From a virus (Duplodnaviria > Caudoviricetes): a DNA stretch of 64,000 nt. The position numbers were made by a program, and so were the translations under genes. The DNA lies in the IMG/VR virus record IMGVR_UViG_2900261899_000001, positions 41,248-105,247 of that record; one strand, 5' to 3'. The notes below the pieces were generated by a model. The model did not search any database. It had not been told where the DNA came from and saw nothing but the letters and a program-made list of their open reading frames with translations. Below are positions 17,753 to 52,277 of this stretch, one piece after another. Position 1 is the first letter of the stretch, and every line of letters starts with the position of its first letter.

Positions 17753-17812
17753 GCGATTTGACGCCGACCCGTTTCGGCGAACGCCCGATCTTTGCCCGGC
17801 TTCGGCCACGCC

Positions 17813-33063: not shown

Positions 33064-33082
33064 GGAAGACCTTCAGATCGAC

Positions 33083-33111
33083 TTGCTCCCGCAAGGGACC
33101 GGGAATACCGT
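33083..33111 (+). promoter_or_regulatory. Sigma70-like promoter of array 2
   Basis: TTGCTC-N17-TACCGT, 6 nt before the TAGC start of the array. Confidence 0.6.
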
Positions 33112-33117
33112 CGTGAC

Positions 33118-33236
33118 TAGCGCGGCATGGCACGGCACCGTTCGGCGTGGCATGGCGAGGCACGGCGCGGCGAGGCTGGGTCGGGTCTGGCGTGGCGTGG
33201 TAGGGGTGAAGAGGTCGGCGTGAGCCGGCCTTTTCC
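33118..33236 (+). ncRNA. GGY-NN pentamer array RNA 2 (candidate gapped guide RNA)
   Basis: TAGCGC, then GGCAT GGCAC GGCAC CGTTC GGCGT GGCAT GGCGA GGCAC GGCGC GGCGA GGCTG GGTCG GGTCT GGCGT GGCGT GGTAG GGGTG, then hairpin AAGAGGTCGGC-GTGA-GCCGGCCTTTT. Confidence 0.8.
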
Positions 33237-33247
33237 GCTTTTTGGAG

Positions 33248-33458
33248 CTACCGACCGTCGTCGCCCTGCCAGAGGGCCTGATCGGCCTGTGCGGGTCTGG
33301 ACATGGTGGATCTCGCATGAACGACTGCGCGGGCGCGCGGGCGAATGCACTCGATCCGAGCGCCGCTACGCCTCGGTGTTGCCGGCGCCGGGTTCGAGGA
33401 AGGACCGCGTGCCGTTGGTGACGGCCGACCGTGTGCGCGGACTGCGTTGCTTGGTCAT
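33248..33458 (-). pseudogene. Two short gene remnants
   Basis: 33458-33366 MTKQRSPRTRSAVTNGTRSFLE...* and 33304-33248 MSRPAQADQALWQGDD..*, both resembling truncated phage protein N-termini. Confidence 0.35.
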
Positions 33459-33679
33459 GGGTCGCGCCTTGGCGTCCCCACTGTCTCTGATGTGGTCGAG
33501 CGATCAGTCTTCGAATAGTTGATCGTATCAAGCAGGGCGGGCGGTGACTGATCGGGATTGGCAGTAAAGGCACGGCCCTGCGCCAAGGCCGAAGCAAGCA
33601 ACTGGATATGGATGCCACGAGGTCTTTTGAACCGTCCAGATGCTGCTATTTTTTTCTCCAAATCGTCTGACATTTTCAC
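33455..33679 (-). CDS. Small hypothetical protein
   Basis: ORF directly after tail spike; lower GC. Confidence 0.4.
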   Translation of the reverse strand: MKMSDDLEKKIAASGRFKRPRGIHIQLLASALAQGRAFTANPDQSPPALLDTINYSKTDRSTTSETVGTPRRDP

Positions 33680-33684
33680 CTATC

Positions 33685-35883
33685 TTAACCAAAATTGCGG
33701 TCAACGAATTTGTTCGTTGCGCCTGAGTTGTCGATAATACCTCCGGTGACGAGGTTTCTGGCGCTATTCTCAGTCACCCAGAAGTAATCACCGCATCCAG
33801 AGTCTAAGCGAACGCCAAATCCCTGCTTGGCCCCAGGCTGAGAGAAGTCGACGTTGAACTTGTTGCGGCTGATGTGAAAATCGGCATTGCCAGAACCGCC
33901 CACGCGAACGCCGCCGCTGCCGTTAATCGAAATATTGCAACTTTCGATGTTGAAGTTTTTGTTGTTGTTGTTGACTGCAAAGCCAATGTTTCGGCTTGCG
34001 CCAATGTCGCAGCCTATGAACTTGAGGCCGTCAGTGCTGTCCATCTGCACGGCGTTGCCGCCATGGTTCCAAGACCAGCATCCGATGTACATGCTCTGTG
34101 CGATCTGCGAGAGCAGCATCCCCTCGTGCGACGTATCCCAGAATACGTTCGCATAGCGGTTGTAGCCTGAGCACTGACCACGGGTGAGGCTCGGCGAGCC
34201 AATCGTCTTGGCATAGAGCCCGCCGATGAAATCGCCGTCGCTGAGGATGATGGCCTCGCAGGCCCCGACCTGTCGCAGAGAACCAAGGCTGAAGTCGTAA
34301 TCAATTGAGCTGATGGTGCCGACGGCGCCTGATGTGTTGCCCGTCACCGTCGTGCCAGCGGCCAGCTGGTTCGGGATCAGCATTCGGTACTGCGATCCAG
34401 TGAGCTGGATGATGTTCAAGCCCGTGTAAGGCGAGCCGGAGATCGTCAGCCCCTCGCCGGCCTGGAATGTGCCGTTGACGCTTGAGAAGTTGATGGTGTC
34501 GCAGATTGAGGCAGTAACGAACTGCGAGAGGAACACGTCGTTTGAGTTCTCGATGTAGACGGCGGTCTCTCGGCCGTCCGACACGCCGAAATCATAGCCA
34601 CGGACGCCCGCACTGTTCTTGACTGATATGCCTCGGTAGGCGGTCGAGATGTTGATGTCGTTGAAGTAGCCCGACACCTGCATGTCGAGGGCAACGCCAG
34701 CGGTCGGGCGAACCGAGAGCGACACCGGCCCCATGTCGATCCCGGAGATGCGGGAGCCGGGAACGCCGGTGGTGCGGATGAAGTTGGTGGTTCCCGTCGA
34801 CCAGCGCACGCGGGTGATCGCTCGGCCCCGGCCGACGAGGCTCTGCCCGCGGGTGGCCACCAGCGTACCGCCAGCCGCACGATACTCGCCGGCGCCCATC
34901 AGCCCGAGGCCATTGTTTACGAGGGCGTCGATCGCCTTCTGAGTGGCCGCGATGCAGTCGGTCGTCGTGTTCTTGAAGCCGTGAAACCAATCGACTTCGC
35001 AGACCGCGAGCCCAGCGATGGAGCCACCGGCCGACAGGTCGAAGATCTGATAGGCACCTGCAGTCAGACCCGCCGTGAAGGTGACCGTGACGCCGTTGTC
35101 CGGCTTCAGCATCACGCCACGCGGGAAACGATAGTGAGCCGAGAGGGTGATGTTGGACGAAATCCGGATCGTGCCGGGCTTAAGTAGCCATTCCCCGAAG
35201 CCTTGAAGCGCATCGGCGAACGAAAGATTTGCGGCATCGTCGGCCGTACCATTAGCGACCAGATTATTGAGAACAGGCGCCTTGGCGGCCAGAGACGCGG
35301 CTGTCGCCGCAGCATCGGCTGCTCCAACGTCGCTGGCGATGAGATTTATTGACGATCCGGATTTGCCATTGACCGTCGTCGGATTGCCTTGAGGCCCTTG
35401 CAGGCCCGCAGCGCCAGTGGCGCCTTGCGGTCCTTGCGCGCCCTGTGCTCCAGCCGCGCCGGCAGGCCCTCGAATTTGGCCGACGTTGTGCCAGTTGCCG
35501 CCGGGGCCGGCGTCGTTGCCGGAGGCGGTGTAGACGTAGCCGTCGCCGCTGGAATAGCCGGTCCCGTTCGACGTCATCAGGTAGACGTCGCCAAGCGTGT
35601 TGCCGGACGACGGAAGGTCCGAGGGGGTAGCCCGCGATCCTTTGATCGTCGTTCCCGCGCCTTGGTCGCCCTTCGGGCCAGGGTCGCCCTTCGGGCCAGG
35701 GTTGCCCTGCTGGCCGGGGTTGCCGCGCTCGCCACGCTCGCCCTGCAGACCGCGTTCGCCCTGGCCACCGGGCAAACCGGGGGCACCGGCGCCCCCAGGG
35801 AGGCCGCGTAGGCCCGGGGCGCCGCCGCCGAGCACGACCTGAGGCACGACGCCCGCGGAGGACGCGCCCAACACGTACGGCAT
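33685..35883 (-). CDS. Tail spike: collagen-like N-terminus plus right-handed beta-helix (pectate-lyase-like)
   Basis: (GXX)n repeats, W.NVGQIRGP, Asn/Gly-rich beta-helix C-terminus of lower GC. Confidence 0.75.
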   Translation of the reverse strand: MPYVLGASSAGVVPQVVLGGGAPGLRGLPGGAGAPGLPGGQGERGLQGERGERGNPGQQGNPGPKGDPGPKGDQGAGTTIKGSRATPSDLPSSGNTLGDVYLMTSNGTGYSSGDGYVYTASGNDAGPGGNWHNVGQIRGPAGAAGAQGAQGPQGATGAAGLQGPQGNPTTVNGKSGSSINLIASDVGAADAAATAASLAAKAPVLNNLVANGTADDAANLSFADALQGFGEWLLKPGTIRISSNITLSAHYRFPRGVMLKPDNGVTVTFTAGLTAGAYQIFDLSAGGSIAGLAVCEVDWFHGFKNTTTDCIAATQKAIDALVNNGLGLMGAGEYRAAGGTLVATRGQSLVGRGRAITRVRWSTGTTNFIRTTGVPGSRISGIDMGPVSLSVRPTAGVALDMQVSGYFNDINISTAYRGISVKNSAGVRGYDFGVSDGRETAVYIENSNDVFLSQFVTASICDTINFSSVNGTFQAGEGLTISGSPYTGLNIIQLTGSQYRMLIPNQLAAGTTVTGNTSGAVGTISSIDYDFSLGSLRQVGACEAIILSDGDFIGGLYAKTIGSPSLTRGQCSGYNRYANVFWDTSHEGMLLSQIAQSMYIGCWSWNHGGNAVQMDSTDGLKFIGCDIGASRNIGFAVNNNNKNFNIESCNISINGSGGVRVGGSGNADFHISRNKFNVDFSQPGAKQGFGVRLDSGCGDYFWVTENSARNLVTGGIIDNSGATNKFVDRNFG

Positions 35884-35998
35884 GCCGGAACTCTCGAAGA
35901 CAGGGGGAGGCGCGCGTGGAAAAGCCCGGGGCGATTGGGCCGGGACGCGCGGCTTGCGGTCGGGCAGAAGCTGGCCGTATGGACCGCCCGAGGGGCGG

Positions 35999-36658
35999 TC
36001 AGAGCAGGTAGACGACGGCCTCGACGAAGGTCAGCGGACCGTAATAAGCAACCTTGCGTCGGTCATCGCCGAACGCGAGGAGCTCGTAGACGTAGTCGCC
36101 CGGAAGCAGACGTCCTGATCCCATCGTTGTGTAGGGGACCATCAGACCGGGAGCGCCAGTTCCGTTGCCCTTCACGATGAGGGGATCGGAATTGTCCGTT
36201 GGGTCGGACAACGCCTCGAAGATCAGCCGTTGGATGGTGTCGGCGCGCCGGACCTGCAGCACATAGCTGATGCCGGTGTCGTTGATCGTCGCGGGCGTCG
36301 GCTGCACCGCGAAGGCGTCGCCAACCCTGAACGGGGTCGAGCCCGGTGTGACCGTCAGGACGAGACCGCCGGCGGAGAGTGGTGCGCCGGCGTATCCCAG
36401 AGCCGTGACGGCGCCGTTGGGATCGGTGACCGTGATGCCGACGAGATTGTCGGTCGAGGTCACCACGACGGCGTGGCCGCCCAAGGGCGTGCGGGGTTCG
36501 ACGCTCTGGACGCTGACGGACCCGTTGCCGGTGTTGCCGCTGCCGACAACGACGCCCGCGGTGCCGGCTTGATATAGCGGAAAGCTGTCCGTCCAGTCGT
36601 CGTTGAGCGCGACGCGCAGGGGCTGGTAACGCGGCTGGATCGCCAGGATGTTCGTCAC
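35999..36658 (-). CDS. Fibre adaptor-like structural protein
   Basis: NDDW, GNTGNG, F.VGD.F, GDYVYEL. Confidence 0.55.
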   Translation of the reverse strand: MTNILAIQPRYQPLRVALNDDWTDSFPLYQAGTAGVVVGSGNTGNGSVSVQSVEPRTPLGGHAVVVTSTDNLVGITVTDPNGAVTALGYAGAPLSAGGLVLTVTPGSTPFRVGDAFAVQPTPATINDTGISYVLQVRRADTIQRLIFEALSDPTDNSDPLIVKGNGTGAPGLMVPYTTMGSGRLLPGDYVYELLAFGDDRRKVAYYGPLTFVEAVVYLL

Positions 36659-36667
36659 GGACCGGCC

Positions 36668-37102
36668 TCAGGCGACGAGTTCGTTGGCCCGGATCAGCAG
36701 CGCATCGACCTGCGCCGGGCTGTAACTGCGCGCCGCGATCATCGCTTGCGTCAGCGGGTCGACGCGACGGATCTCGGTGGCCAGATCCCAGTCCTCTTGG
36801 AGGTCGGGATTGGACGCGAGCGCTGCCTTTACCGCTGGCCATTCCGGCTCCGGAAACACGGCCAGCTCCCCGGTCTCGGCCAGGGCGCGTTTCAGTCCGA
36901 GCTTCGAGGCCGAGGTCGGCACGACGACAACGACGGGCGGCGGCGGTGGGGCCGCAAAGCCGTCATCGGTCGCAAGCCAGCCGATGGCGATGTCCGCCAC
37001 GTGGGAGACGTCCCGGACGTCGAACAGGTCGTGCGGCCATGCGTCCTCGCCTTCGGACAGGGCGTGCACGATCCCGCTATTCACGAGCGCGAACAGAGCC
37101 AT
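36668..37102 (-). CDS. Tail fibre assembly-like protein
   Basis: IGW..TDDGFAAPPPP, W..ATEI.R..P; follows fibre gene. Confidence 0.6.
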   Translation of the reverse strand: MALFALVNSGIVHALSEGEDAWPHDLFDVRDVSHVADIAIGWLATDDGFAAPPPPPVVVVVPTSASKLGLKRALAETGELAVFPEPEWPAVKAALASNPDLQEDWDLATEIRRVDPLTQAMIAARSYSPAQVDALLIRANELVA

Positions 37103-37112
37103 GCTTCAATCC

Positions 37113-39062: not shown

Positions 39063-39136
39063 CGCGGGACTTTCGGTCGGAGGATGTTCGGGATGCGCTG
39101 GGGCCGACCGTCAGCGGTCGGGCGAGCGGCGGCGCG

Positions 39137-39907
39137 CTAGGATTGGATCGCGGTCCAGCCGATCGTGCCGGCCGCGACAGTCGCGGCAATGGTCGCGTAG
39201 ATCTCGGCGTCCGTGACCTGCGCCTCGGACTGGCTGAGATCCGCGTAGGCGATCACGCCGACGCCGTAGCCGCCGCCCGGGCTGCCGTATCCGGAGAGCT
39301 CCGGGATGCCGGCCGTTGCCGGGCGGAAGGCGGTGATGAAGGTCTGGTAGGGGTAGGCGAGCGAGCCCCAGGCGCCGGCACCGCCCGACACCATCTGGCT
39401 CGGTGCGGGGACGACGTAGGCGAAGGTGCCGATCCCATAGGCGCTCGGGTTGTCACCGTAGCCTGAGACTGGCTGCTCGCCGGTCCCGCTGCCCGCATAG
39501 GCGATGGCGCCGATGCCGTAGCCACCGCAGTCGCCCGGATTCCAGAGTTCCTGCAGGACCGGTTCGCGGCCCGTCAGATCGACGAGCGCCCGCCGGATCG
39601 CCTCGCGCGTCGCGCGCGGCCGCAGCAGTTCGCGCAGGATGCGGGGACGAAAGGCGTCGTCGGTCTCGGCCGCACGGCGCAGGAAGCGCAGGCCGAAGAA
39701 GTCGAAGGCGATGAGGTCGAGCCAGCCGCCGGTGGCCGTGGCGATCCGCGTCTGCGCCTTGGCGTATGCGATCAGGCCATGGACGAAGGCCAGGAGCGCC
39801 GCGATGCCGCCGAGCAGACCGTCGAGGATCGGGGCCTCGTCCGGAAACCAGGGCGGCAGGAGCGTGCGCAGGCGCGCCAGCATGTCGTCCGCATCGCCAA
39901 CGGCCAT
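39137..39907 (-). CDS. Baseplate wedge protein (gpI-like)
   Basis: LLP.WF, RIATATG.WLD....FFG..R...E.D..FR.RI. Confidence 0.75.
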   Translation of the reverse strand: MAVGDADDMLARLRTLLPPWFPDEAPILDGLLGGIAALLAFVHGLIAYAKAQTRIATATGGWLDLIAFDFFGLRFLRRAAETDDAFRPRILRELLRPRATREAIRRALVDLTGREPVLQELWNPGDCGGYGIGAIAYAGSGTGEQPVSGYGDNPSAYGIGTFAYVVPAPSQMVSGGAGAWGSLAYPYQTFITAFRPATAGIPELSGYGSPGGGYGVGVIAYADLSQSEAQVTDAEIYATIAATVAAGTIGWTAIQS

Positions 39908-39911
39908 GGTC

Positions 39912-41042: not shown

Positions 41043-41401
41043 GGTACCTCGAAGGACAGCGTCTGCTGCCGGCCGGTGGCGGCGTCGGCGTAGATGATCC
41101 GGACGTGGACGCCGTTCAGGATCGGCGTCACCACGATGACGGGGTCGGGGTCGCGGGCAACGGAGGCCTCGCGAAAGATTTGCGACCGGATCAGTGCTGA
41201 CAGCTCATCGGCGTCGATCAGGCCACCGACGCGAAGCTGAACGCCGGCGCCGTATCCGAGGTTCTGGATGTACGTCCCGGCCACCGTCAGCAGGCGGCGC
41301 AGGACGCGCTGGACGCCGCGCTGGGTGCCGTCGACGAGCAGCAGGTCGCCGGTCGGCCCGACGGAGAGGTCGGAGCCGATCATCAGGCTGAGATCAGGCA
41401 T
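41039..41401 (-). CDS. Baseplate gp25/gp46-like protein
   Basis: DL.VGPTGDL, QRVLRRLLT..G.YI....YGAG. Confidence 0.75.
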   Translation of the reverse strand: MPDLSLMIGSDLSVGPTGDLLLVDGTQRGVQRVLRRLLTVAGTYIQNLGYGAGVQLRVGGLIDADELSALIRSQIFREASVARDPDPVIVVTPILNGVHVRIIYADAATGRQQTLSFEVP

Positions 41402-41428
41402 AGGTCCGACCGGGTCGTGGGAAGCGGC

Positions 41429-43095: not shown

Positions 43096-43099
43096 CGGT

Positions 43100-43315
43100 T
43101 CAGGCCCCGATCACGCCACTGGTCGTCTGGCCCTTCGGGGGCCGATCCGGCAGCACCAGCGTGACGACGCCGGTGAGGAAGGGGTCGCGCAGGCCGTTGA
43201 GGCGCGCGATGCGGGCCCAGAGGGTGTGGTCGCCGAGTTCGCGGGCGGCGATCTCGTACAGGTTGCCGCCGGAGACCGTGACGACACGGGCGTTGCGGCC
43301 GACCTGGATCTGCAC
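43100..43315 (-). CDS. LysM/tail X-like protein
   Basis: GNLYEIAARELGD...W.RIA.LNGL.DP. Confidence 0.75.
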   Translation of the reverse strand: MQIQVGRNARVVTVSGGNLYEIAARELGDHTLWARIARLNGLRDPFLTGVVTLVLPDRPPKGQTTSGVIGA

Positions 43316-43319
43316 CGGG

Positions 43320-44078: not shown

Positions 44079-44273
44079 GGCCCCTCCCGAGGCGAGGGGT
44101 GGACGCAGAAACGGCAACGGCCCCGGCAGAAATCTGCGCGGGGCCGTTCGTAGGGTCCCTTATACGTCAAGGAACTCTTGGCGACTAGACGGAGGCGCAG
44201 CCATAACAGGCCACCGGCGCGCACATTGTAATAGCGCACGTGGTGCGCTATTTTAGGGATGGGAGGCGGGAAT

Positions 44274-44507
44274 GTGCCGACGTTAAAGCGCTTCGACCAA
44301 TTCAAGATTTGCGTCTTCGCTGACGATCATCCGCCGCCGCATTTCCATGTGATCGGGCGCGGGTTTAAGGCAACGATCTTGTTCGAGACGCTATCGCTTG
44401 ATGTCGGAGAATGCCCCCGGAAGGTGTTCGCGGAGGCGGTGACTTGGGCCGCCGTGAATCGCGAAGCCCTCGAAGAAGCTTGGAGGAACCTCAATGAGCG
44501 ATCGTGA
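44274..44507 (+). CDS. DUF4160 family protein
   Basis: MPT......I....DH.PPHFHV motif. Confidence 0.75.
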   Translation: MPTLKRFDQFKICVFADDHPPPHFHVIGRGFKATILFETLSLDVGECPRKVFAEAVTWAAVNREALEEAWRNLNERS

Positions 44508-45249
44508 CATGATCCGCGCCGGGGATCCTATTCCGTCGATCGGGGCCGTAGAGGTTGGCAACGGTCCTTACGACGTCCTTATCACCTGGGCCGATGGTCA
44601 TCGAGCCGGCCAGCAAATCCTCATCGACCTCGCCCCAGTGATCCTGACCTACAAGGTCTTCATTCCGTTGCGCGATGACCGCCGTCTTTTCGCAACCGTG
44701 CGCGTGGCCGAGTACGGCGAGGCCATCGAGTGGGGTGATAACGATGATCTGGCGGTCGCTGGGACGACGTTGGAGCGCCTTGCCAACGAAACGATGACCA
44801 ATGTCGATTTTGCAGCATTTCTGAAGCGCAACAGGCTCACACTAGATGCCGCAGCTGGGCAGCTCGGGATCGGTCGTCGTCAGGTGTCATACTACGCCAA
44901 AGGGCGGGAGATTCCGAGATATATCTCCCTCGCTTGTAAATATATCGAAGAGCGCAAAGCAGTAGATGATATAAATAATTATTTATCTGCCGGCAACACG
45001 CTTACTAAGATAGGATTGCACAACTGTGTTATAACTGACGGGAATAACAACTTCGATTGCGTGGCTCAAGCTACCGCGGCCTGGGACAGTAATGTCGTGA
45101 TTATCAAAGATGGGGGGGTGATAGAAGGCTATTATGTACCACCGGGTGAGAAACCTGAAGTGATAGTTAAAGGCGGTACGATTAAGGTAGGTTCGGGAAA
45201 TGTAACTGGCACAAGGCGTGCTAAATTAAATCTTGATAAAATTAGATAA
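44494..45249 (+). CDS. DUF2442-HTH antitoxin-like protein with AT-rich C-terminal extension
   Basis: F.PL.D..LF..V....G.AIEW, HTH LT...AA..LGI.RR.V.YY..G..IPR.I.LAC. Confidence 0.7.
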   Translation: MSDRDMIRAGDPIPSIGAVEVGNGPYDVLITWADGHRAGQQILIDLAPVILTYKVFIPLRDDRRLFATVRVAEYGEAIEWGDNDDLAVAGTTLERLANETMTNVDFAAFLKRNRLTLDAAAGQLGIGRRQVSYYAKGREIPRYISLACKYIEERKAVDDINNYLSAGNTLTKIGLHNCVITDGNNNFDCVAQATAAWDSNVVIIKDGGVIEGYYVPPGEKPEVIVKGGTIKVGSGNVTGTRRAKLNLDKIR

Positions 45250-45384
45250 TAGCCATGACCGACCGATCTCTCACCGCCGGGCACCGCGATGATATTCTTC
45301 TACGCACCTTAGACGGCGATTAGAAAAGACTGAGACATTACCCATTTGGGGTAGGATGATATACTAGATTAGGATACCTCAATC

Positions 45385-45690
45385 GTGCAGCTTACAATTG
45401 AAGTGGGCGAACTTAAGGTTCTGGCGAGCGGTGTACTGCTTGTCGATTCCGGTCGAGATGTAAAGTTTACAATTGAAGGAAATGTGTTTGAGCTTATGAT
45501 TGATAAAGATGGGCCGCCATATGAAAAGGTTGGCACAAATCATATTCGAGCCTACTTTAACACTGATAAAATGGTCAGTACTAGTTCAATGATCGGCGAT
45601 TATAATGGTAGGCCGTTAATGATCTCAATCCGTGTTCAGCAGCAAGGTACCCACATTAGGCAGGTTTTTTATACACTGGGTCATCATTAA
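45385..45690 (+). CDS. AT-rich hypothetical protein
   Basis: AGGA RBS; low GC. Confidence 0.55.
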   Translation: MQLTIEVGELKVLASGVLLVDSGRDVKFTIEGNVFELMIDKDGPPYEKVGTNHIRAYFNTDKMVSTSSMIGDYNGRPLMISIRVQQQGTHIRQVFYTLGHH

Positions 45691-45992
45691 TGGCTGTCCG
45701 TCTAGATCTTCCGCCTGACAAAACTTTGGCAACCCGTGTAATTGAAACGGAAGCCGAGCACAATACGCGAAAACTTGAGCGCGGTTTAATGGGTTTGATC
45801 TTTGGTCTCGCCACCGAAAAACCCGGAAATATCGCTGGCTTTGCGCTGATAGCTTTCTGCCTCATGTTTGCGGGGGTTTTGATTTGGGGCACCGATAGCA
45901 GCAGTCTATCAAAGAAAGACGTACTTTCGCTTATAGGTGGTTTTATCACCTTAACGCTCGGCTTCGTATTTGGTCGAACATCATCGTCTTAG
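45690..45992 (+). CDS. AT-rich two-TM membrane protein
   Basis: TAATG coupling; hydrophobic segments ending LGFVFG. Confidence 0.6.
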   Translation: MAVRLDLPPDKTLATRVIETEAEHNTRKLERGLMGLIFGLATEKPGNIAGFALIAFCLMFAGVLIWGTDSSSLSKKDVLSLIGGFITLTLGFVFGRTSSS

Positions 45993-46030
45993 ATGTGTGG
46001 TGCAACGAAGTCATGGACATGAAGAAAATG

Positions 46031-46124
46031 GAAAAGGCCGGCGCGAGCCAGCCCTTTCACCCTTGCCTCGCCTCAACAAACCCCGCCCCGCGGTACCCCG
46101 CCTTGGCCGGCCGTGCCTTAGCTA
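46031..46124 (-). ncRNA. GGY-NN pentamer array RNA 3 (candidate gapped guide RNA)
   Basis: Minus strand: TA GCTAA GGCAC GGCCG GCCAA GGCGG GGTAC CGCGG GGCGG GGTTT GTTGA GGCGA GGCAA GGGTG, then AAAGGGCTGGC-TCGC-GCCGGCCTTTTC. Confidence 0.8.
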
Positions 46125-46131
46125 GATCTCG

Positions 46132-46160
46132 AGCCTAGGATCGGTCCAGCGGCTGGGCAA
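46132..46160 (-). promoter_or_regulatory. Sigma70-like promoter of array 3
   Basis: TTGCCC-N17-TAGGCT, 7 nt before TAGC; same layout as array 2 promoter. Confidence 0.6.
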
Positions 46161-46209
46161 GACAGAGGGTGTGTTTGTCCCTCCCGGTGTACGAGAGGGA
46201 CGGCCGCCG

Positions 46210-48729
46210 TCAGGCTAGGACGCGACCGCCGTACCCTACCGGCGTTTTCAGCGTCGAATCGTCGAACGAACCGGTCCCGTTTCTCGTGTTCGCTTCGGCG
46301 ACCTGATGGTGCGTCACGGACCGACCGACCGTGCGGCCGTCGAGATGCACCGAGCTGGCAACCTGGATCGGGGCGGAACGCCCCTTGTAGATCAGGGAGC
46401 TCGATTTGCCGGGTGTCGCACCGCCACCGCCACCGCCGCCGGACGCGCCGCTTCCGAGATCGGCGCCGCCCGCCGGTTTGGCGCTTGCGCTTCCGATCGC
46501 GGCACGAGCAGCAGCCGCTACCCCGCCGATCCAACCCGCAAGCGCGTTCAGCGGGCCGCCAGCGCCTTGCGCCGCTTGCCCCGCCTTCTGAGCGCCAGAC
46601 GCAGCCTCATTGAGCGTGGAGACCGCACCAGCTGCCGTAGACGCGAGCCGCTGCTTGGCCGCTTCGATATTCTCCGTCGAAAGGCCCAGCCCTTCGGTGC
46701 CGATGTGACGCCGCGGGTTTTCACCACCGCCCGTCATGAATCCGTCGGGACCGCCGAACTCGAATGGCGTGGTACTTTTTCGGCGCTGCTCGGATAGAGT
46801 GTCGGCAAGTTTGCGAGCTGGCTCGCCTGCGATCTTATCCCACGGAAGCGTGACGGCGGCGATGGTGACAGCCGCACCGGCACCGACAGCCAGCGCTGGA
46901 AGGCTGAGCGTGCCGACGGCGGCAATAGCTAGTGCTGCAATACCCGCAGCTGCCGCACCACCGACAACAGCGGCCGTGGCGCCCATCGCCGTCTCGGCTG
47001 CGACTGGATGCTTCTCTAGTGTGTTTGCCACGCCTCCAAGCGCTGCGTTCAAGCGGTTAAGGTTGTCGACAAGGTTTGGGATTGCTGGCTCCGAGAGTGC
47101 GGTCGCCACTGCGCCGCCCTGCGATTTGGTGCCCTGCAGAGCCGCATAGGGGTCGTCGCGCCTATAGGCCGTGGTATCGCCGGAAGTCTTATCGTACCCG
47201 GCGAAGTCTTTTTCGATCTTACTTTTTTGCTGCGCCAATTCGAACAAAAATCCGTAGGCGTTCTTGTCGGTAAAAATTTTACCGAGGGTACGAAGCAGAT
47301 CGGTCTTGTCATCAGTATTGACGCCACCCGCTTTGAGCTTCGGAATGACGTTGTTGTAAAGCCATAGATCCGGGTCCTTGGCCCGGTCATAAGTTTTTCC
47401 GTCCAAGCCCACATCTGAAAATTGAGCACCCGGCTGGACTAACGTGTGTTTCTTGTTCCAAGTGACAGTTGGTTCTTGAAGAAGATTATATTTGTAGGCT
47501 TCAGTGAGCCCCGAGCCCAGCATACGCAAGCCACCGACACCCTTTGCCGCGAAGGTCGCGAACTGGGTACCGGCGCGCTGTCCAATTTCCTGCGAAAGCG
47601 CCGCGAAGGCGCCGTAGCGAAAGTGGTCGCTGGTCAGATTTAGCATCTGACCGCCGTTTTTCTGTGCGGTAAAGTAGTTCGATGGGTTGAGCTTGTCGCC
47701 GTACCAGAAGGCCAACCTCATCAGCGAGTTGGCGTGCTTCTTGACCCCCTCCGAGGTAATCTCGTTAGCTGTTTCAGCCGATTTCACGGCCGTGTAAATC
47801 TCGTTTACAGCGTTCTTAGCGCCGTGATTGCCGGCTTTGGCCTTCAGTGCCGAGAACTCTGGTAGCAATTCTGGCGCTTCGTGAATTGCTTTGTCGATGT
47901 CGCCAAGAATACCGCGGAGATCGTTGATGTGCTCGAAGATCTCGACAGGGGATAGATTAGGAAATTGTTGCGAACCCTTATATGAAAGTTCCTTGGCATG
48001 ATCGATCTGCGCTGGGCTAGCTCCGGTCTGCCGCATGCCGAGTTCAATGTGGCGCATATCGACGCCGGTCTCGATGACCTCAGAGAGCGTATGGACCCCG
48101 CCGGAGACCCCAATGACGCTTGCAAGTGCCGAGCCTTCATGGCCGACGAGACCATGCGTTCCGTGACTGCGCCGGCCATGCCCCCTGCCACGCGTGGCGC
48201 GCCCGGCACCGGTGCCAGCGCCCCCGGCCCCGCCGCCACCCCGGACGGGCGTTGGCAAGTTCACATTGCTCGCGGCTGACTGCAGGCGACGCATGGCGCC
48301 GGCCGCCGAATTGATCCGGCTCGTCCAACCCGAGATCGACTGCGTGACACCCCGCGCCGCTGAAGCGACGCCTTGGGTCTCGCGGCGCATGACGCGCATC
48401 TCGGCGATGGGCTTGCCGATGGCGCTGGCCCAGCGCTGCATTTCACGGTCCAGACCGTTGCCACCCTTCAAGCCAGACATGGCACGCGAGATCCGCGCGA
48501 CCTCGCGCTCGATCTTTTGGCCGGCGGAGGAGGACTTCGACAGTTCGCGGTTCAGTTGGCCGGCGGCGGACGCAGCGCGGTTCAGGGGCGAGACCCAGCG
48601 ACCGAACGATTTCTCAACGGATTTGGTTTTAGAGTCGACATCGCTCAGGGTCTTGAGCAGGCGCGTCATCTCGGGCACGAGATTGCCCGCGAGCGTCATG
48701 CTCGTCTGGATGCGATACACGTCGCTCAC
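46210..48729 (-). CDS. Tape measure protein
   Basis: 839 aa helical Ala/Gly-rich ORF between tail chaperone region and baseplate; C-terminal LDGR.V. Confidence 0.8.
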   Translation of the reverse strand: MSDVYRIQTSMTLAGNLVPEMTRLLKTLSDVDSKTKSVEKSFGRWVSPLNRAASAAGQLNRELSKSSSAGQKIEREVARISRAMSGLKGGNGLDREMQRWASAIGKPIAEMRVMRRETQGVASAARGVTQSISGWTSRINSAAGAMRRLQSAASNVNLPTPVRGGGGAGGAGTGAGRATRGRGHGRRSHGTHGLVGHEGSALASVIGVSGGVHTLSEVIETGVDMRHIELGMRQTGASPAQIDHAKELSYKGSQQFPNLSPVEIFEHINDLRGILGDIDKAIHEAPELLPEFSALKAKAGNHGAKNAVNEIYTAVKSAETANEITSEGVKKHANSLMRLAFWYGDKLNPSNYFTAQKNGGQMLNLTSDHFRYGAFAALSQEIGQRAGTQFATFAAKGVGGLRMLGSGLTEAYKYNLLQEPTVTWNKKHTLVQPGAQFSDVGLDGKTYDRAKDPDLWLYNNVIPKLKAGGVNTDDKTDLLRTLGKIFTDKNAYGFLFELAQQKSKIEKDFAGYDKTSGDTTAYRRDDPYAALQGTKSQGGAVATALSEPAIPNLVDNLNRLNAALGGVANTLEKHPVAAETAMGATAAVVGGAAAAGIAALAIAAVGTLSLPALAVGAGAAVTIAAVTLPWDKIAGEPARKLADTLSEQRRKSTTPFEFGGPDGFMTGGGENPRRHIGTEGLGLSTENIEAAKQRLASTAAGAVSTLNEAASGAQKAGQAAQGAGGPLNALAGWIGGVAAAARAAIGSASAKPAGGADLGSGASGGGGGGGATPGKSSSLIYKGRSAPIQVASSVHLDGRTVGRSVTHHQVAEANTRNGTGSFDDSTLKTPVGYGGRVLA

Positions 48730-48750
48730 GGCGTACCCCGGGGAGAAGTC

Positions 48751-49197
48751 ATGAAGGGGTTATGGCTCGCCGTTCTTGCGGCGATCATACTGGCGCCCCC
48801 AGCGGCCGCGCAGACCCAGCAGGGCTGGGCGCAATGCCGTACCGTTGCGGACAGCCTGGAGCGGCTGAAATGCTTCGATGGTCTTGGGCCCGCGCCGGTG
48901 GCGCAGGTGGGTGCCTACGAGAAAATGACCTTGATCGATTGGAAGACCGACAAGGCATCGCTACAAGGAAAAAAGGTCGAGGTCGAAGGTCTCGCCATGC
49001 CGTTTGCCGGCGGAGCGCTGCTGTCGATCCAAGCGGGCGATGTCAGTCCGGTCTTCCTTGATGTCGAGCGCGTGCCGCGGGATCAACGCAGGCGGCTTCT
49101 AGGCTGCTCGCCTATGTGCCGATTGTCGGTGCAGGGTAGCGGTGGCACGGTACAATATCAGCAGGGTATCATCGCCGATACTTTGAGTTTCCGCTAA
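48751..49197 (+). CDS. Exported protein (moron)
   Basis: Signal peptide MKGLWLAVLAAIILAPPAAA; C....D..ERL.CFD motif. Confidence 0.65.
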   Translation: MKGLWLAVLAAIILAPPAAAQTQQGWAQCRTVADSLERLKCFDGLGPAPVAQVGAYEKMTLIDWKTDKASLQGKKVEVEGLAMPFAGGALLSIQAGDVSPVFLDVERVPRDQRRRLLGCSPMCRLSVQGSGGTVQYQQGIIADTLSFR

Positions 49198-49274
49198 TTT
49201 ATTAGTCAGACGACTAACATTAAAGTCTTAGCGGATCACCCGATGCCCTGGCTGCGGCAATGGACGGAAATGAA

Positions 49275-49781
49275 TTATCGAGGCGGAAACAACAAAAGCG
49301 TCAAAAAGGCCGTTTTGCTATCTTCGCTAGCGGCCTCAAGCCCGGTCAACGCCGACTTTGCAATAAGAATAAAGTGCTCGACTTCTGACACAGTTAAGAC
49401 GTGTGATGGGTCATAATCGGCTAGCATACGCTGTTCATATAGGTCAATAAATGCGTCGGCGTACCCGGTTATTTGCGCATCAAATCCGCCTGCCGGCCAA
49501 TACCTGCTGTATTTCTGGCTTGGATTCTGCTTTTTTATTTCAACACAAAGAGACCTCATTTTGCCGTGATCTATTGATCTGTAAGCCAAGCTATAAAGGC
49601 TGCTGCCTCTTTTATCCTCTCCGACGGACTGGTCGGCGGCCGCCTTCAGACCGGCATGGAACACGGCATAATAGGTAGCCGATACTGCTCTACATCTGTC
49701 AGCCAAGCGCGGTCGTTCCTGCCCAGGCAGCACAGCGAGCAGGCGTTCGGCCTGCTCAACCAAATGTGCGGGTTCGATCAC
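49275..49781 (-). CDS. HEPN-domain protein
   Basis: RAVSATYYAVFHA, H, L...R..ADYD. Confidence 0.7.
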   Translation of the reverse strand: MIEPAHLVEQAERLLAVLPGQERPRLADRCRAVSATYYAVFHAGLKAAADQSVGEDKRGSSLYSLAYRSIDHGKMRSLCVEIKKQNPSQKYSRYWPAGGFDAQITGYADAFIDLYEQRMLADYDPSHVLTVSEVEHFILIAKSALTGLEAASEDSKTAFLTLLLFPPR

Positions 49782-50070
49782 GCTGAAGCTCTATCCAATC
49801 TTCCATTCGGGCAAAGCTAACTAGTGGCACACGGTCCTCACCGGCCCTGTGTAACTCGCTTTTCATCCTACTGATGATATTGAGCAGTTGTGTTCCTCCA
49901 AAGTCGTCGGCGTTTGCCTCTGGGTACACAATAGTTATTTTGAGCGCATCGGACCCATCGGATGTTTGAGCGCCCGCTATTGCTGTCGATATTGGGACAA
50001 ACTTACCCAAAACATCCCGAGATGTTTCCTTCGCCAGTCTTGATATTTCACCTAAATCTAGCCGCATCAC
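49756..50070 (-). CDS. Small partner of HEPN gene (possible degenerate nucleotidyltransferase fold)
   Basis: Overlaps HEPN start; DG.DAL.I.IV...GE.R.P...F. Confidence 0.5.
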   Translation of the reverse strand: MMRLDLGEISRLAKETSRDVLGKFVPISTAIAGAQTSDGSDALKITIVYPEANADDFGGTQLLNIISRMKSELHRAGEDRVPLVSFARMEDWIELQRDRTRTFG

Positions 50071-50078
50071 CGCATGCC

Positions 50079-50333
50079 TCAGCCCTGTATTCCCAGGACG
50101 GGCGCCTTCAGCCGGACGCCCGGCCCCCCGCCGTTCTCTGCGATGAACTCGAGCCCAGCCTCCGCAAGCGCTTTCTCAACCTTTGCCAGATTGTCGGTGA
50201 TAGCCTTGGGAACCCCCTCGCTCTCCTCCATCCGTTTGATTGTTGCGGGGGACACCCCAGAGGTATCCGCTAAATCCCTTACGGACCACCGAAGGTAGCC
50301 GCGTGCCATCCGAATCTGGGCCCCGGTGACCAT
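50079..50333 (-). CDS. XRE-family HTH regulator
   Basis: TGAQIRMAR..L.WS..DLA..SGVS..TIKR.E...LAEAG.EF..ENGGGPGVRL. Confidence 0.85.
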   Translation of the reverse strand: MVTGAQIRMARGYLRWSVRDLADTSGVSPATIKRMEESEGVPKAITDNLAKVEKALAEAGLEFIAENGGGPGVRLKAPVLGIQG

Positions 50334-50364
50334 AAAAGCTAAATGACCCATATTTGGTCTAGCG

Positions 50365-50413
50365 TGAGCTAAATTGGTTGACACGGGCGCCTCCATGAGC
50401 CAATTTAGCTCAT
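50365..50413 (+). promoter_or_regulatory. Promoter with inverted operator repeats
   Basis: TTGACA(50378)-N17-CAATTT; 13-bp inverted repeat TGAGCTAAATTGG (50365-77) / CCAATTTAGCTCA (50400-12). Confidence 0.65.
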
Positions 50414-50459
50414 GGCCGCTGCAAATGAAAGCGACCTTACCACTAAGAGGATCGCGCCG

Positions 50460-50804
50460 ATGCCCGTGAATGCAAAGATCCCCACCCCCCTGCGCGCAAA
50501 CATCATGGCCAGGGCCTGGGAGTTATTCCGCAAGCGCTACAATTACCCCCGCACCCCGTTCCGTTCGATCGGCCGCGCATGTTTCGCGTCGGCTCTAAAA
50601 GCCGCGTGGGCGGAAGCCCGTGAGACTGTTCGTCTTGTCGGTTTCGGGGCCGATGCCCTGAGGCGCTCTATCGAGGCACTTTCCTCTCCGGCTCACGCGG
50701 TAGGCCTTTCCTCAAGCTACGCGCTTGGCCCTCAGGCCGCGATGGAGCGGTATCAACAAAAGCTCGCTTTAACGGCCGCCCTGAACTTCGCGATTGCGGC
50801 TTGA
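50460..50804 (+). CDS. Hypothetical protein
   Basis: GAGGA RBS; IMARAW...R, FA.ALK.AWAEAR motif. Confidence 0.65.
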   Translation: MPVNAKIPTPLRANIMARAWELFRKRYNYPRTPFRSIGRACFASALKAAWAEARETVRLVGFGADALRRSIEALSSPAHAVGLSSSYALGPQAAMERYQQKLALTAALNFAIAA

Positions 50805-50815
50805 GGGAGGGAGCT

Positions 50816-51313
50816 ATGCAAAATCGGAGAGCAATCCTCACGGCCCTTATTGCGGTACCGCTGACTGGGCCGTTGTGTGCGGGTCAGCCTCATCTTGACG
50901 CGGCCCTGCTCGACCTCGGCAGGCGCTTCGATGCCGCCGTGGCGGCGCACAAAGCCCACGTCCGGGCCTACTTCGCGGCTGACGAGGCCCATACCCAGGC
51001 GCTCCAGGCCGCTAAGTCGGCTGGGCGGTTCAAGGGGCTCGACGCTGAAGCCTACGCAGCGCTCCACTCGCAGCTAATTGAGCCGTTCAACGCGGCGCTA
51101 GAGAGGGACGACGAACTCCACGACGCCTGCGGCAAGCTGGGCGAGCAAATCATCGCGATCCAACCCAAGACTCTGGATGGAATCGCTGTTCTTGCCCGTG
51201 TCTGCCAGTTCGAATCGCGGCAGGCCTGGGAAGCGCCGAAGAGCCGCGAGTACGATGAGGACGTCCTCGTTGCCCTCGTCGACGGCATCTTGGCCGTGGC
51301 CGCTACGGCGTGA
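50816..51313 (+). CDS. Hypothetical protein
   Basis: NRR..L, DAALL.LG, I......TLDG....AR. Confidence 0.6.
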   Translation: MQNRRAILTALIAVPLTGPLCAGQPHLDAALLDLGRRFDAAVAAHKAHVRAYFAADEAHTQALQAAKSAGRFKGLDAEAYAALHSQLIEPFNAALERDDELHDACGKLGEQIIAIQPKTLDGIAVLARVCQFESRQAWEAPKSREYDEDVLVALVDGILAVAATA

Positions 51314-51753
51314 CCTACGAGGAATACCTTGCATCCCCACGATGGGCCGAGCTGCGCCGGCTGAGGCTAGCCCTCGACGGATTCCGCTGCCGGGGCTGCG
51401 ATACCGCCGACAATCTTGAGGTTCACCACCGGCGCTACGGCACCCCGCTGGGCAGCGAGACGGTCGACGACCTGACGACGCTCTGTGGCGGCCCCGAGGG
51501 CTGCCACCACGCGATCACCACCATCATCCGCCGCCGCCTGTACGCGACCCGTCAGTATGACGTGACCGCAGTCGCTCGGCTGGCCCCCGGCAATCTGGAG
51601 AAGAACGATGTCCCAGGACTACGAGCGTTTAAGATTTCGGCTCACCGGCGTGTCGCCCCTGGTCATGCACAACGGTCGCTTGGCGAACCCGCTGGACTCG
51701 TTTGCGAAGGCGCTGAAGGCGGTCTCGGGAAAGCGCGGCAAGACGGACGCTGA
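51310..51753 (+). CDS. HNH endonuclease
   Basis: Y.EYL.SPRW...R...L..DGFRCRGC....LEVHH..Y...G.E...DL.TLC....CH. Confidence 0.8.
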   Translation: MTYEEYLASPRWAELRRLRLALDGFRCRGCDTADNLEVHHRRYGTPLGSETVDDLTTLCGGPEGCHHAITTIIRRRLYATRQYDVTAVARLAPGNLEKNDVPGLRAFKISAHRRVAPGHAQRSLGEPAGLVCEGAEGGLGKARQDGR

Positions 51754-52183
51754 CTTCGAGGAGATGGCCCGTATCGAGTTCCTGGGCGGCCTCTATGTCG
51801 GCGACGATGGTCCTTGCATCCCCGGCGAATTGATCGAAGCGGTCCTGATCGCGGCGGCCAAAAAGAACAAGCGCGGCATGCAGGCCAAGGCCGGCATCCT
51901 TTCGGACGGCAACCACCGGGTCGAGTACCACGGCCCCAGAGGGGCAGAGGAGCTGTGGGCGGACGACCGCTTCCGCCTCGTTGCCGGCGTTCGTGTCGGA
52001 CAGGCCCGTGTGATGCGGACCCGCCCGATCTTTCGGGAGTGGTCGTCAGAAATCTTCGTTGACTTCCTGCCGGGTCAATTGAACCGGGCGGACGTCGCGG
52101 GAATGGTTAGAACCGCAGGCACCATCGTCGGCATCGGCGATTGGAGGCCGCGGTTTGGAAGGTTCACAGTGGAGACGCTGTGA
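51608..52183 (+). CDS. Stand-alone RAMP/Cas7-like protein
   Basis: N-terminal strand RFRLTGVSPLVMHN, central PCIPGELIEAVLIAAA, C-terminal Gly-rich loop AGTIVGIGDWRPRFGRFTV; GGAG RBS; directly followed by pentamer array. Confidence 0.7.
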   Translation: MSQDYERLRFRLTGVSPLVMHNGRLANPLDSFAKALKAVSGKRGKTDADFEEMARIEFLGGLYVGDDGPCIPGELIEAVLIAAAKKNKRGMQAKAGILSDGNHRVEYHGPRGAEELWADDRFRLVAGVRVGQARVMRTRPIFREWSSEIFVDFLPGQLNRADVAGMVRTAGTIVGIGDWRPRFGRFTVETL

Positions 52184-52273
52184 TAGCCCGGTAGGGCAAG
52201 GCGGGTCGCGGCATGCCTCGGCAAGGCGTGGTTCGGTAGGGGTGAAAAGGGCCGGCTTTCGCCGGCCCTTTTC
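52184..52273 (+). ncRNA. GGY-NN pentamer array RNA 1 (candidate gapped guide RNA)
   Basis: TAGCCC, then GGTAG GGCAA GGCGG GTCGC GGCAT GCCTC GGCAA GGCGT GGTTC GGTAG GGGTG, then hairpin AAAAGGGCCGGC-TTTC-GCCGGCCCTTTT. Confidence 0.8.
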
Positions 52274-52277
52274 CACA

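Follow-up and report, generated by a model that had tools for sequence, protein, structure and literature searches.

Three short repeat elements share one scaffold within a 64,000-nt stretch of a Caudoviricetes prophage (IMG/VR record IMGVR_UViG_2900261899_000001, hereafter the window), two of them far from the third, which raises the question of which protein they serve and against what. We consider them very probably the vrRNA guide RNAs of a phage-borne VIPR (Viral Interference Programmable Repeat) system, a DNA-targeting system lodged here in a high-GC bacterial prophage, with two of the guides aimed at the alleles of rival prophages. VIPR was first described in 2026, mainly in enterobacterial and Pseudomonas phages (bioRxiv 10.64898/2026.04.26.720920, 10.64898/2026.04.26.720927). 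The elements do not form a new class: they match the vrRNAs of these systems. A published vrRNA has 9-16 GGY/NN units and a tail, and the GGY bases and the tail are the part bound by Vipr (bioRxiv 10.64898/2026.04.26.720920, 10.64898/2026.04.26.720927).

Architecture of the three elements

Each element (e1, e2 and e3; Table 1) starts with TAGC (at 33118, at 46124 on the - strand and at 52184) and closes with GGYAR-GGGTG-AA and then a G+C-rich terminator hairpin, as the initial annotation of this DNA had described. The hairpin loops differ (GTGA, TCGC and TTTC), also in line with that description, and a short run of T and then CC follow the hairpin. The repeats are 5-nt GGYNN units that keep one phase as far as the GGGTG junction in all three elements, with a pyrimidine retained at the third position. 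There are 16 units in e1, 12 in e2 and 10 in e3, for lengths given earlier as about 11, 12 and 16 units. Among the units of e2 and e3 several are degenerate, which the VIPR preprint permits. The stem changes had been said to keep pairing through G-U, and 93% of the cells are indeed paired across five sequences, with such G-U replacements; only one pair changes on both sides, which does not rise above shuffles. The first base of e3 is the one right after the vipr stop codon. Searches of the whole window with Rfam at the gathering threshold gave no match, and neither did a tRNA scan. The effector, the 5-nt code and the prior description of the system had all gone unrecognised in the initial annotation.

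The promoters proposed earlier for the two distal copies are present as far as hexamers and spacing go, but a sigma-70 scan called neither of them (3/6 consensus matches per hexamer). At the other end, the tails of e1 and e2 are the two strongest terminator-like sites within 32900-52400. The ORF at 33073-33618 (- strand), which overlaps e1, was considered as a gene and rejected, the region having no coding signature.

Table 1. Features of the VIPR system and of its predicted targets in the window
Feature	Position	Strand	Description
Tail-module gene	32467..33063	-	198 aa, no family match; alleles in related prophages carry the predicted e1 target
Own-allele partial e1 match	33017..33063	-	First 16 codons from the ATG of 32467-33063; 22/32 (69%), 55 nt from e1
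Putative e1 promoter	33083..33111	+	TTGCTC-N17-TACCGT, predicted; 6 nt upstream of e1
vrRNA e1	33118..33240	+	TAGC, 16 GGYNN units (33124-33203), then the junction and a terminator hairpin (33208-33235); runs antisense to the tail operon
Non-coding filler adjoining e1	33241..33684		Within a 620-nt gap; from 33250 G+C flat over codon positions; stops in all six frames
Inserted island	44118..46209		Separates the tape-measure gene from the tail gene that follows; carries e2 plus four + strand ORFs
vrRNA e2	46027..46124	-	TAGC, 12 units (46063-46122), then the junction and a terminator hairpin (46031-46058)
Putative e2 promoter	46132..46160	-	TTGCCC-N17-TAGGCT, predicted; 7 nt upstream of e2
Tape-measure-like gene	46210..48729	-	phrog_28, weak; related-prophage alleles carry the predicted e2 target
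Own-allele partial e2 match	46256..46290	-	Close to the tape-measure gene's 3' end, in frame; 19/24 (79%), 132 nt from e2
Small HNH-endonuclease-like gene	51310..51753	+	Candidate vap (vipr-accessory); overlaps the vipr start; phrog_119 HNH endonuclease, E 1.3e-6
vipr	51608..52183	+	RAMP-type Vipr effector, 191 aa; phrog_4652, E 1e-52
vrRNA e3	52184..52275	+	TAGC, 10 GGYNN units (52190-52239), GGGTGAA junction, hairpin

The Vipr effector and an overlapping HNH-like gene

The product of the gene next to e3 matches the PDB entry 36pp_D, "SUSP1 Vipr protein", over its full length (residues 5-187), with an E-value of 1.2e-31 as a single sequence and of 5.8e-45 as a profile. The preprints give the residues of SUSP1 Vipr that hold G1, G2, Y3 and the skipped target base. 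In our alignment this contact set is kept: H21, K37, E74, R139, D178, W179 and R180 correspond to H17, K33, E71, R138, D177, W178 and R179 of SUSP1, and M72 of SUSP1 Vipr is a Leu here. The G-loop GDWRPRFGRF is invariant among 23 Vipr homologues.

The translation of the small gene that overlaps the start of vipr has CxxC and HH motifs, and it matches the HNH part of IscB weakly, far under the cut-off. Such an HNH-like gene lies directly upstream of vipr at both vipr loci of this genome (the second vipr gene, on contig C2, also has an adjacent GGYNN array), at 8 of the 15 loci searched and at 55 of 80 viral loci. Its product may work with Vipr.

A single effector working with several single-guide cassettes, encoded apart but built on a common scaffold, had been proposed at the outset, and this is supported here: vipr stands directly upstream of e3, the GGY bases and the 3' tail are common to the elements, and each distal copy has a strong terminator of its own. 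Since one of the distal elements is antisense to its neighbours and the other lies 5.5 kb from vipr, e1 and e2 cannot be processed from the vipr transcript.

Copy number and occurrence in relatives

The initial annotation had called for a covariance model and for a search of relatives. The model, built from the last repeats and the tail, finds exactly three copies in the whole 4.6-Mb genome (E 2.9e-13, 6.5e-13 and 1.7e-11), the next match being the antisense of e3 at E 0.03. A more lenient scan of both strands of the genome (six or more GGY among nine units in phase) gives 13 arrays, 4 of which are clearly vrRNA-like: the three in the window and the one by the vipr gene of contig C2. In a related viral record (G401), whose Vipr is 78% identical to ours, two vrRNAs immediately follow vipr and bear this same tail. 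GGYNN arrays lie beside vipr in all six other same-genus genomes having a Vipr match, and this architecture flanks the gene at every related locus inspected. The tail model, when applied to 120 same-genus genomes, returned three weak matches, which are ordinary terminators after unrelated genes and have no repeats. A megablast of positions 30000-54000 against phage and plasmid records gave no match. In DNA so rich in G+C, two tblastx comparisons returned chiefly noise, and nothing but their vipr match was used.

The distal elements lie 5.5 kb (e2) and 18.4 kb (e1) from vipr, both inside the tail-gene region. None of the 122 arrays in 80 related viral loci is more than 3 kb from vipr, and the dispersal seen in this prophage is thus unusual.

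Predicted targets of the guides

To score targets we followed the published rule, in which the NN bases of the guide are compared with the target and one target base is skipped per unit. The partial match of e1 at the start of the neighbouring tail-module gene is tied for the best of its own genome, where three sites reach 22/32. Homologues of this gene occur at 12 loci in 11 of the 120 same-genus genomes, and the best e1 match is always the homologous 5' end, with 21-26/32. In four related same-genus prophages the scores are 26/32 (81%, which barely reaches the 80% threshold of the preprint), 25/32, 25/32 and 24/32, against 22/32 for the own allele. These sites are in frame and the skipped base is the wobble position. 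The own allele has Cys-Leu where 9 of the 12 homologues have Val-Ile. In two relatives, a stop lies about 60 nt upstream of the site homologous to the e1 target.

The own site of e2 is the single best in the whole genome and has the NN bases on codon positions 1-2; at 79%, it is narrowly under the 80% threshold. In two same-genus genomes, G453 and G408, the tape-measure homologues agree with e2 at 21/24 positions (88%) of the homologous site, in frame and with the wobble position as the base skipped. Here the own allele reads AGA, in contrast to the CG of the guide and of both relatives, and AGA makes up only 4 of the 378 Arg codons in 12 long genes of the window. A pattern search for the e2 target with at most 3 mismatches found nothing in 401 genomes of the family.

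For comparison, 100 base-shuffled guides run over the same 251,843 bases peak at 23 for e1 and at 19 for e2. Across the whole own genome, neither guide has a site of at least 80% (maxima of 22/32 and 19/24) or a significant host-genome target. The picture is different for e3, for which no target was found in 252 kb of related prophage DNA (best 15/20, for a null maximum of 16). In its own genome e3 twice reaches 17/20, the level of shuffled guides; one such site, near the second vipr locus on contig C2, was considered as a target and rejected, being out of frame in an 893-aa ORF. Looking for an e3 target in G401 and at other vipr loci gave nothing, and we found no cross-targeting between VIPR systems when the guides of G472, G401 and the window were compared with each other's loci. 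The guide at the C2 locus, with its 7 units, was left out of the scoring as too short.

These observations suggest the following scheme. By homology with SUSP1, one Vipr protomer would bind each GGYNN unit and the protomers would build a filament along the RNA, concealing the GGY bases and displaying the NN bases, which would then pair with double-stranded DNA while skipping every third target base. Guide e3 would be produced from the vipr locus, and e1 and e2 would be expressed as separate cassettes among the tail genes and would rely in trans on the same Vipr. According to a further preprint, vrRNAs encoded away from vipr do work in trans (bioRxiv 10.64898/2026.10.15.759431). For e1 the predicted target is the first 16 codons of the tail-module gene, and for e2 it is the tape-measure gene's 3' end, in alleles belonging to related prophages that lack the system, and sufficient mismatches would spare the own alleles beside the guides. 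The ribonucleoprotein would silence the competitor, or might cut it if the HNH protein is recruited.

Alternative explanations

The distal guides might instead act through their partial matches on their own neighbouring genes and not on rivals, for example by repressing the tail operon during lysogeny or by setting the time of late transcription. For both guides the best match anywhere in the genome is indeed the neighbouring gene, 55 and 132 nt away, and the e1 site spans a start codon beside a divergent promoter region. In addition, 6 of the 96 guides in other viral loci have significant partial self-matches, five of them within 1.5 kb. However, such self-regulation predicts that the own target matches best, when it is the foreign alleles that do (81-88% vs 69-79%), and the changes in the own alleles, including the rare synonymous Arg codon, specifically abolish matches. 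For the published vrRNA sets that were searched against their own contigs, no self-hits of at least 80% are reported (bioRxiv 10.64898/2026.04.26.720920, 10.64898/2026.04.26.720927). We consider self-regulation improbable. Self-sparing is nevertheless not clean everywhere, since a related guide of G401 matches its own two tape-measure genes at 21/26 (81%).

It is also quite unlikely that the distal copies serve mainly to load the Vipr of other phages, sequestering it or redirecting it at third parties. Precedents for such decoys are the solo vrRNAs that redirect the VIPR of a helper phage to decoy sites and the orphan vrRNAs of phages without vipr, both described in one preprint (bioRxiv 10.64898/2026.10.15.759431). 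Yet this phage has its own vipr, with an adjacent vrRNA that bears the same tail, and the matches of the distal guides are specific, in frame and located in structural genes of rivals, not in host repeats; no significant target was found in the host genome.

That the elements are not guide RNAs at all, the 5-nt G-rich repeats being a protein sponge, G-quadruplex elements or decayed repeats in front of terminators, is most implausible: no Rfam family is found at the gathering score and the GG-N3 spacing could in principle give two-tier quadruplexes, but the third position stays a pyrimidine, the adjacent gene encodes a Vipr homologue in which the GGY-binding residues are conserved, the same architecture is found by vipr at every related locus inspected, and the NN positions give in-frame matches to homologous genes, which neither a sponge nor a quadruplex would. 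A sponge for a TRAP-like ring protein or a G-quadruplex had been entertained for the 5-nt GG period and was dropped once the Vipr homology was found.

Comparison with known systems

The reading as VIPR guides aimed at rival prophages places the locus close to the type II systems of SUSP1 and Pseudomonas fulva, with a homologous Vipr, the same GGY contacts and vrRNAs of about 100 nt made of GGY/NN units and a conserved 3' tail. They also share targets in coding DNA with the wobble base skipped, and a phage-borne location with competing mobile elements as the predicted quarry. There are differences too. The SUSP1 clade has a pseudoknot tail, whereas the tails of this prophage are simple terminator hairpins; and two of the guides here are placed 5.5 and 18.4 kb away, within a region of tail genes. 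The HNH-like candidate accessory gene, upstream of vipr and overlapping it, does not resemble the gene that lies downstream of vipr in phage HY02. An HNH-type nuclease gene next to vipr is rather reminiscent of the nuclease-associated types III-V, and HNH is among the vap domains listed in the preprint. The same preprint describes an enrichment of types III and V within islands of host defence, with viruses as their targets, whereas this system resides in a prophage and would be aimed at prophage structural genes.

The distal guides resemble the solo and orphan vrRNAs of F5 satellites and VIPR-null phages (10.64898/2026.10.15.759431), which are cassettes off the vipr operon that have the cognate tail and act in trans. 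They are not solo in the sense of that preprint, where the term stands for no Vipr on the contig or within 20 kb (10.64898/2026.10.15.759431), since here vipr is in the same prophage. The solo vrRNA targets that it describes are host REP elements, vipr genes, other vrRNAs and satellites; those predicted for e1 and e2 are alleles of the guide's neighbouring gene.

Like Cas7 on the crRNA of Class 1 CRISPR systems, the RAMP-fold Vipr of the preprints polymerises on its guide and flips bases out of it at regular intervals. The code is different, with 5-nt units in which three bases are flipped and two pair, compared with one base flipped in six in Class 1. The elements are not a CRISPR array, which has direct repeats of 20-40 nt, spacers and cas genes: their units have 5 nt, and we found no cas families among the window proteins scanned.

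Placement of the distal guides

The site that a homing endonuclease cassette recognises lies in the flanking gene of cassette-free relatives, and the allele of the carrier differs. The placement of e1 and e2 follows the pattern of such intron-less homing: both lie beside a site that is recognised in cassette-less relatives, and the own allele is different. We found no GGYNN arrays within about 1.5 kb of the homologous e1 and e2 sites in the relatives. The contrast is clearest for e2, as the syntenic G453 prophage shares the gene order but has neither the e2 island nor the vipr island. There, the homologue of the gene at 43320-44117 comes directly after the tape-measure gene, and this empty junction is about 25 nt from the e2 target. 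A mobile cassette between conserved genes is also what free-standing homing endonucleases of T4-like phages are, e.g. SegB (PMC2330249). Unlike these, the mobile cassettes here would be guide RNA genes and not nuclease genes, and the protein parts are encoded elsewhere in the phage.

We tentatively suggest, as a possibility we find rather doubtful, that the distal vrRNA genes are selfish "homing guides", each inserted beside the site it recognises and travelling with an immune allele. If the HNH protein cuts the site bound by Vipr and vrRNA in a relative that is co-resident or co-infecting, or if stalling of the complex there leads to a break, repair from this phage would copy the cassette and the linked immune allele into the rival. 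Such transfer would amount to RNA-guided marker exclusion, analogous to the intron-less homing of free-standing endonucleases. In a weaker form without cutting, the linkage between the guide and the immune allele may itself be selected, because recombinants with the guide and a sensitive allele would silence themselves. The main texts consulted of the 2026 VIPR preprints make no mention of a distal guide beside the phage's own mismatched allele, and two of them do not contain the word "homing". If the placement reflects linkage selection or homing, it would bear on how guides spread and avoid self-targeting, and on guide-encoding elements as mobile units before CRISPR adaptation existed.

The locus also adds a divergent VIPR clade, found in a high-GC prophage and accompanied by an HNH-like gene, and it offers concrete predicted natural targets, the structural genes of related prophages. 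The closest homologues of this Vipr carry the names of Methylobacterium, Microvirga and Azospirillum, and it is about 37% identical to the proteins of Felixounavirus.

The repeat elements and their genomic setting

By direct reading and alignment, the elements e1, e2, and e3 are tracts of GGYNN units with strict 5-nt periodicity and, in agreement with the initial annotation, all three start with TAGC and end with GGYAR-GGGTG-AA followed by a G+C-rich hairpin and a short T run. Parsing in 5-nt units returned two of the lengths claimed earlier (12 and 16 units), whereas the third, put at about 11, is 10. The hairpins dominate the predicted structure of the elements, whose whole-element fold z-scores relative to shuffles are -3.3, -2.2, and -3.7, and those of e1 and e2 are the two strongest terminator-like sites found by a scan of 32900-52400. 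The promoters proposed for the two distal copies, e1 and e2, fared less well: the hexamers are common to both, but they match the sigma-70 consensus only weakly and were not called in a scan.

Coordinates of the repeat tracts and of the adjoining genes in the window
Feature	Position	Strand	Description
e1 repeat tract	33124-33203	+	16 GGYNN units
e2 repeat tract	46063-46122	-	12 GGYNN units
HNH-like ORF	51310-51753	+	overlaps vipr start; CxxC and HH motifs; HNH-endonuclease PHROGs, E 1.3e-6
vipr	51608-52183	+	191 aa; phrog_4652, E 1e-52
e3 repeat tract	52190-52239	+	10 GGYNN units

Chance repetition does not account for the elements. A covariance model of the tail together with the last repeats recovered only e1, e2, and e3 from the 4.6-Mb genome that carries the window (E 1.7e-11 to 2.9e-13), the next match being the antisense of e3 (E 0.03). 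The tail model yielded no additional true copy in 120 other same-genus genomes, and its three weak matches there are plain terminators. A lenient in-phase GGY scan of the whole genome gave 13 arrays, of which four are clear, namely the three elements and one on another contig, C2. No Rfam family matches the elements at gathering score.

The window has a G+C content of 66% and contains a prophage, whose long minus-strand genes between 28 and 49 kb match PHROGs of tail-fibre, tail-spike, baseplate-type, and tape-measure proteins. The first base of e3 directly follows the stop codon of vipr. The e2 element lies on the strand of the tape-measure-like gene, 85 nt downstream of it. The e1 element is on the plus strand and antisense to the tail operon; it lies upstream of gene 32467-33063, 55 nt from the gene's start.

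The effector is a Vipr protein

VIPR systems were described in 2026 in bioRxiv preprints from one group, and the same arrays were recovered by a further preprint. As presented there (10.64898/2026.04.26.720920, 10.64898/2026.04.26.720927), the effector is a small RAMP-type protein, Vipr, and the guide is a vrRNA of ~100 nt that combines 9-16 GGY/NN repeats with a conserved 3' tail. Each repeat is bound by one Vipr protomer, which sequesters GGY and presents NN. The NN bases pair with double-stranded DNA, skipping every third target base, usually the codon wobble position; a PAM is not required, and the natural targets are located in competing prophages and satellites. In the SUSP1 Vipr of these preprints, G1, G2, Y3, and the skipped base are held by H17, K33, E71, M72, R138, D177, W178, and R179.

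No Pfam or NCBIfam family matches the 191-aa protein. Among solved structures it matches one, chain D of PDB 36pp, "SUSP1 Vipr protein" (E 1.2e-31; E 5.8e-45 when a profile of 23 homologues is used), in an alignment covering about the full length of both proteins. In the profile alignment, the counterparts of the SUSP1 contact residues are H21, K37, E74, L75, R139, D178, W179, and R180, most of them invariant or nearly so among the window protein and its homologues. Because of this homology, the conserved contact residues, and the published architecture of VIPR, sequence comparison identifies the gene as vipr and the three elements as vrRNAs.

Nuclease vaps, with HNH domains named, occur in some VIPR types, and types III and V show enrichment in defence islands (VIPR preprint). 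The HNH-like ORF of the window, a candidate vap (vipr-accessory) gene, is co-conserved with vipr and the first vrRNA. In the related viral record G401, which encodes a 78% identical Vipr, nucleotide similarity with the window begins exactly at this ORF. By tblastn it lies directly upstream of vipr in 8 of 15 loci, and these are 8 of the 9 loci in which Vipr has a full-length identity of at least 41%; the same arrangement is found in 55 of 80 viral loci. Felixounavirus differs in having a 146-aa gene downstream of vipr, without similarity to the upstream HNH ORF of the window.

The same genome has a second VIPR locus outside the window (C2:132842-133480, locus L010), with a 42% identical Vipr and likewise an HNH-like ORF upstream of vipr and overlapping it. 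Its short GGYNN array has a different tail and starts inside the end of vipr, and an integrase-like gene lies just upstream.

Two guides are unusually far from vipr

Vipr homologues are abundant: 1111 proteins were retrieved at E up to 1e-5, the nearest named ones from Methylobacterium, Microvirga, and Azospirillum, and 136 phage records have one. Six of the 120 other same-genus genomes have a match, each adjoined by GGYNN arrays with different tails. Our own array caller, applied to 80 viral loci and their flanks of at most 10 kb, gave 122 arrays, 118 within 1 kb of vipr, 4 at 1-3 kb, and none farther away, all on the vipr strand. The distal guides lie 5.5 kb (e2) and 18.4 kb (e1) from vipr with separate terminators, one of them on the opposite strand, a dispersal that is unusual against this background. 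They fall outside the published definition of "solo" vrRNAs, which have no Vipr within 20 kb (10.64898/2026.10.15.759431), since vipr is within that distance.

The distal guides match alleles of related prophages

Targets were scored by the published rule, in which the NN of each unit are kept and joined by one wildcard; scores are NN positions paired over the total. Neither e1 nor e2 has a site at 80% or more in the own genome, and their maxima are equalled by base-shuffled guides. The location of the top sites is not random. For e2, the single best site in the genome (19/24) is in the reading frame of the tape-measure gene, close to its 3' end and 132 nt from the guide. Of the three best sites for e1 (22/32), one is 55 nt away and has the ATG of gene 32467-33063 as its exact start.

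Homologues of these two genes were taken from the 120 same-genus genomes (one per species, a sample of the genus). The best match of e1 is the homologous 5' end in 12 of 12 homologous loci, with scores of 26, 25, 25, 24, 24, 23, 23, 23, 23, 21, 21, and 21 of 32, against 22 for the own allele. At the homologous tape-measure site, e2 scores 21/24 in the same-genus genomes G453 and G408 and 19 in the own allele; for more distant homologues the scores are 14-16. Overall, the numbers for both guides lie near the conventional 80%. The maxima of 100 shuffled guides over 251,843 bases of related prophage stretches are 23 (e1) and 19 (e2), in a null that preserves base composition, not codon structure. 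The own tape-measure site has an AGA arginine codon where the guide, G453, and G408 have CG, and of the 378 arginine codons in 12 long genes of the window, 4 are AGA. At the tail-gene site, the own allele encodes Cys-Leu, and 9 of the 12 homologues Val-Ile. No target of e3 was found in the own genome, the related prophage stretches, or other vipr loci.

The G453 prophage is syntenic with that of the window: the neck genes, the tape-measure gene, and the tail genes after it keep the same order, and the flanking genes are 49-72% identical. It lacks the 2.1-kb island that carries e2, the empty junction being ~25 nt from its e2 target, and the 3.5-kb stretch between neck genes and tape-measure gene that carries HNH-vipr-e3 in the window. 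None of the related rival prophage stretches compared encodes Vipr.

The reading best supported by these sequences is that of a VIPR system in a prophage, with distal guides that would be aimed at structural-gene alleles of related, system-free prophages and with own alleles that mismatches would spare. The effect on the target might be transcriptional blockade, as shown for the SUSP1 system (VIPR preprints), or cutting via the HNH partner. The e1 site, at a start codon, would suit silencing; that of e2, 27 codons before the gene end, would be better suited to cutting, or to a polar block on the tail genes downstream, than to silencing the gene itself. It is conceivable, if rather unlikely, that the adjacency of guide and immune allele reflects linkage selection or a homing-like process. 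Under the former, recombinants joining a guide to a sensitive allele would harm themselves; the latter would resemble free-standing homing endonucleases, reported to transfer themselves and flanking markers through cutting the recipient (PMC2330249).

Guides beside their own partial matches in other loci

The second vrRNA of G401, related to e2 (75% identity), scores 21/26 against the C-terminal region of both G401 tape-measure genes, one of them ~1 kb away. Two of 11 further guides from other loci have self-matches exceeded by none of 200 shuffles, one 61 nt from the array and the other at 1.9 kb, where it falls in frame toward the end of a 3080-aa ORF. In a systematic comparison of 96 distinct guides, all taken from viral loci at least 6 kb long, 6 have self-matches at p <=0.01 (about 1 expected) and 9 at p <=0.05 (about 4.8 expected); five of the former six lie no more than 1.5 kb from the array, mostly in frame within long ORFs. 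Because of this excess, the pattern is real, but it concerns a minority of vipr-adjacent guides. In the window it holds for both distal guides.

The tape-measure-like ORFs of G401 (the 99-kb record behind locus L002) are paralogous, encode 994 and 986 aa (15359-18343 and 33314-36274, both minus strand), and each have a peptidase-like segment. This record may hold two related prophages.

Other features of the window

Immediately upstream of the e1 insertion is a tail-fibre gene (33685-35883, minus strand) with a segment of collagen triple-helix repeats (PF01391, E 7.5e-9). The gene flanked by the homologues of 35999-36658 and of 32467-33063 does not appear to be conserved among relatives. The island adjoining e2, which separates the tape-measure gene from the next tail gene (44259-45992, plus strand), has ORFs matching DUF4160 (E 1.6e-11) and, weakly, DUF6864, and two more without a family. 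Between the VIPR block and the tape-measure gene lies a 168-aa ORF (49275-49781, minus strand) with a weak HEPN-domain match below the cut-off (E 0.0035). The first gene of the plus-strand block ending in HNH-vipr (50412-50804) has a weak similarity to the anti-CRISPR AcrIIA3 (E 6.8e-5, 22.9 bits for a cut-off of 70), which is only a lead, and one to Pfam Phage_Gp111, also far below threshold. Just past the neck genes, a 257-aa ORF (53506-54279, plus strand) matches phage endonuclease/nuclease PHROGs (phrog_452, E 1e-10). Finally, the first third of the window has a second block of phage-like genes (1-20500, plus strand), which may be part of the same prophage or of a neighbouring one, and which is in parts 67-70% identical in nucleotide sequence to the end of G401.
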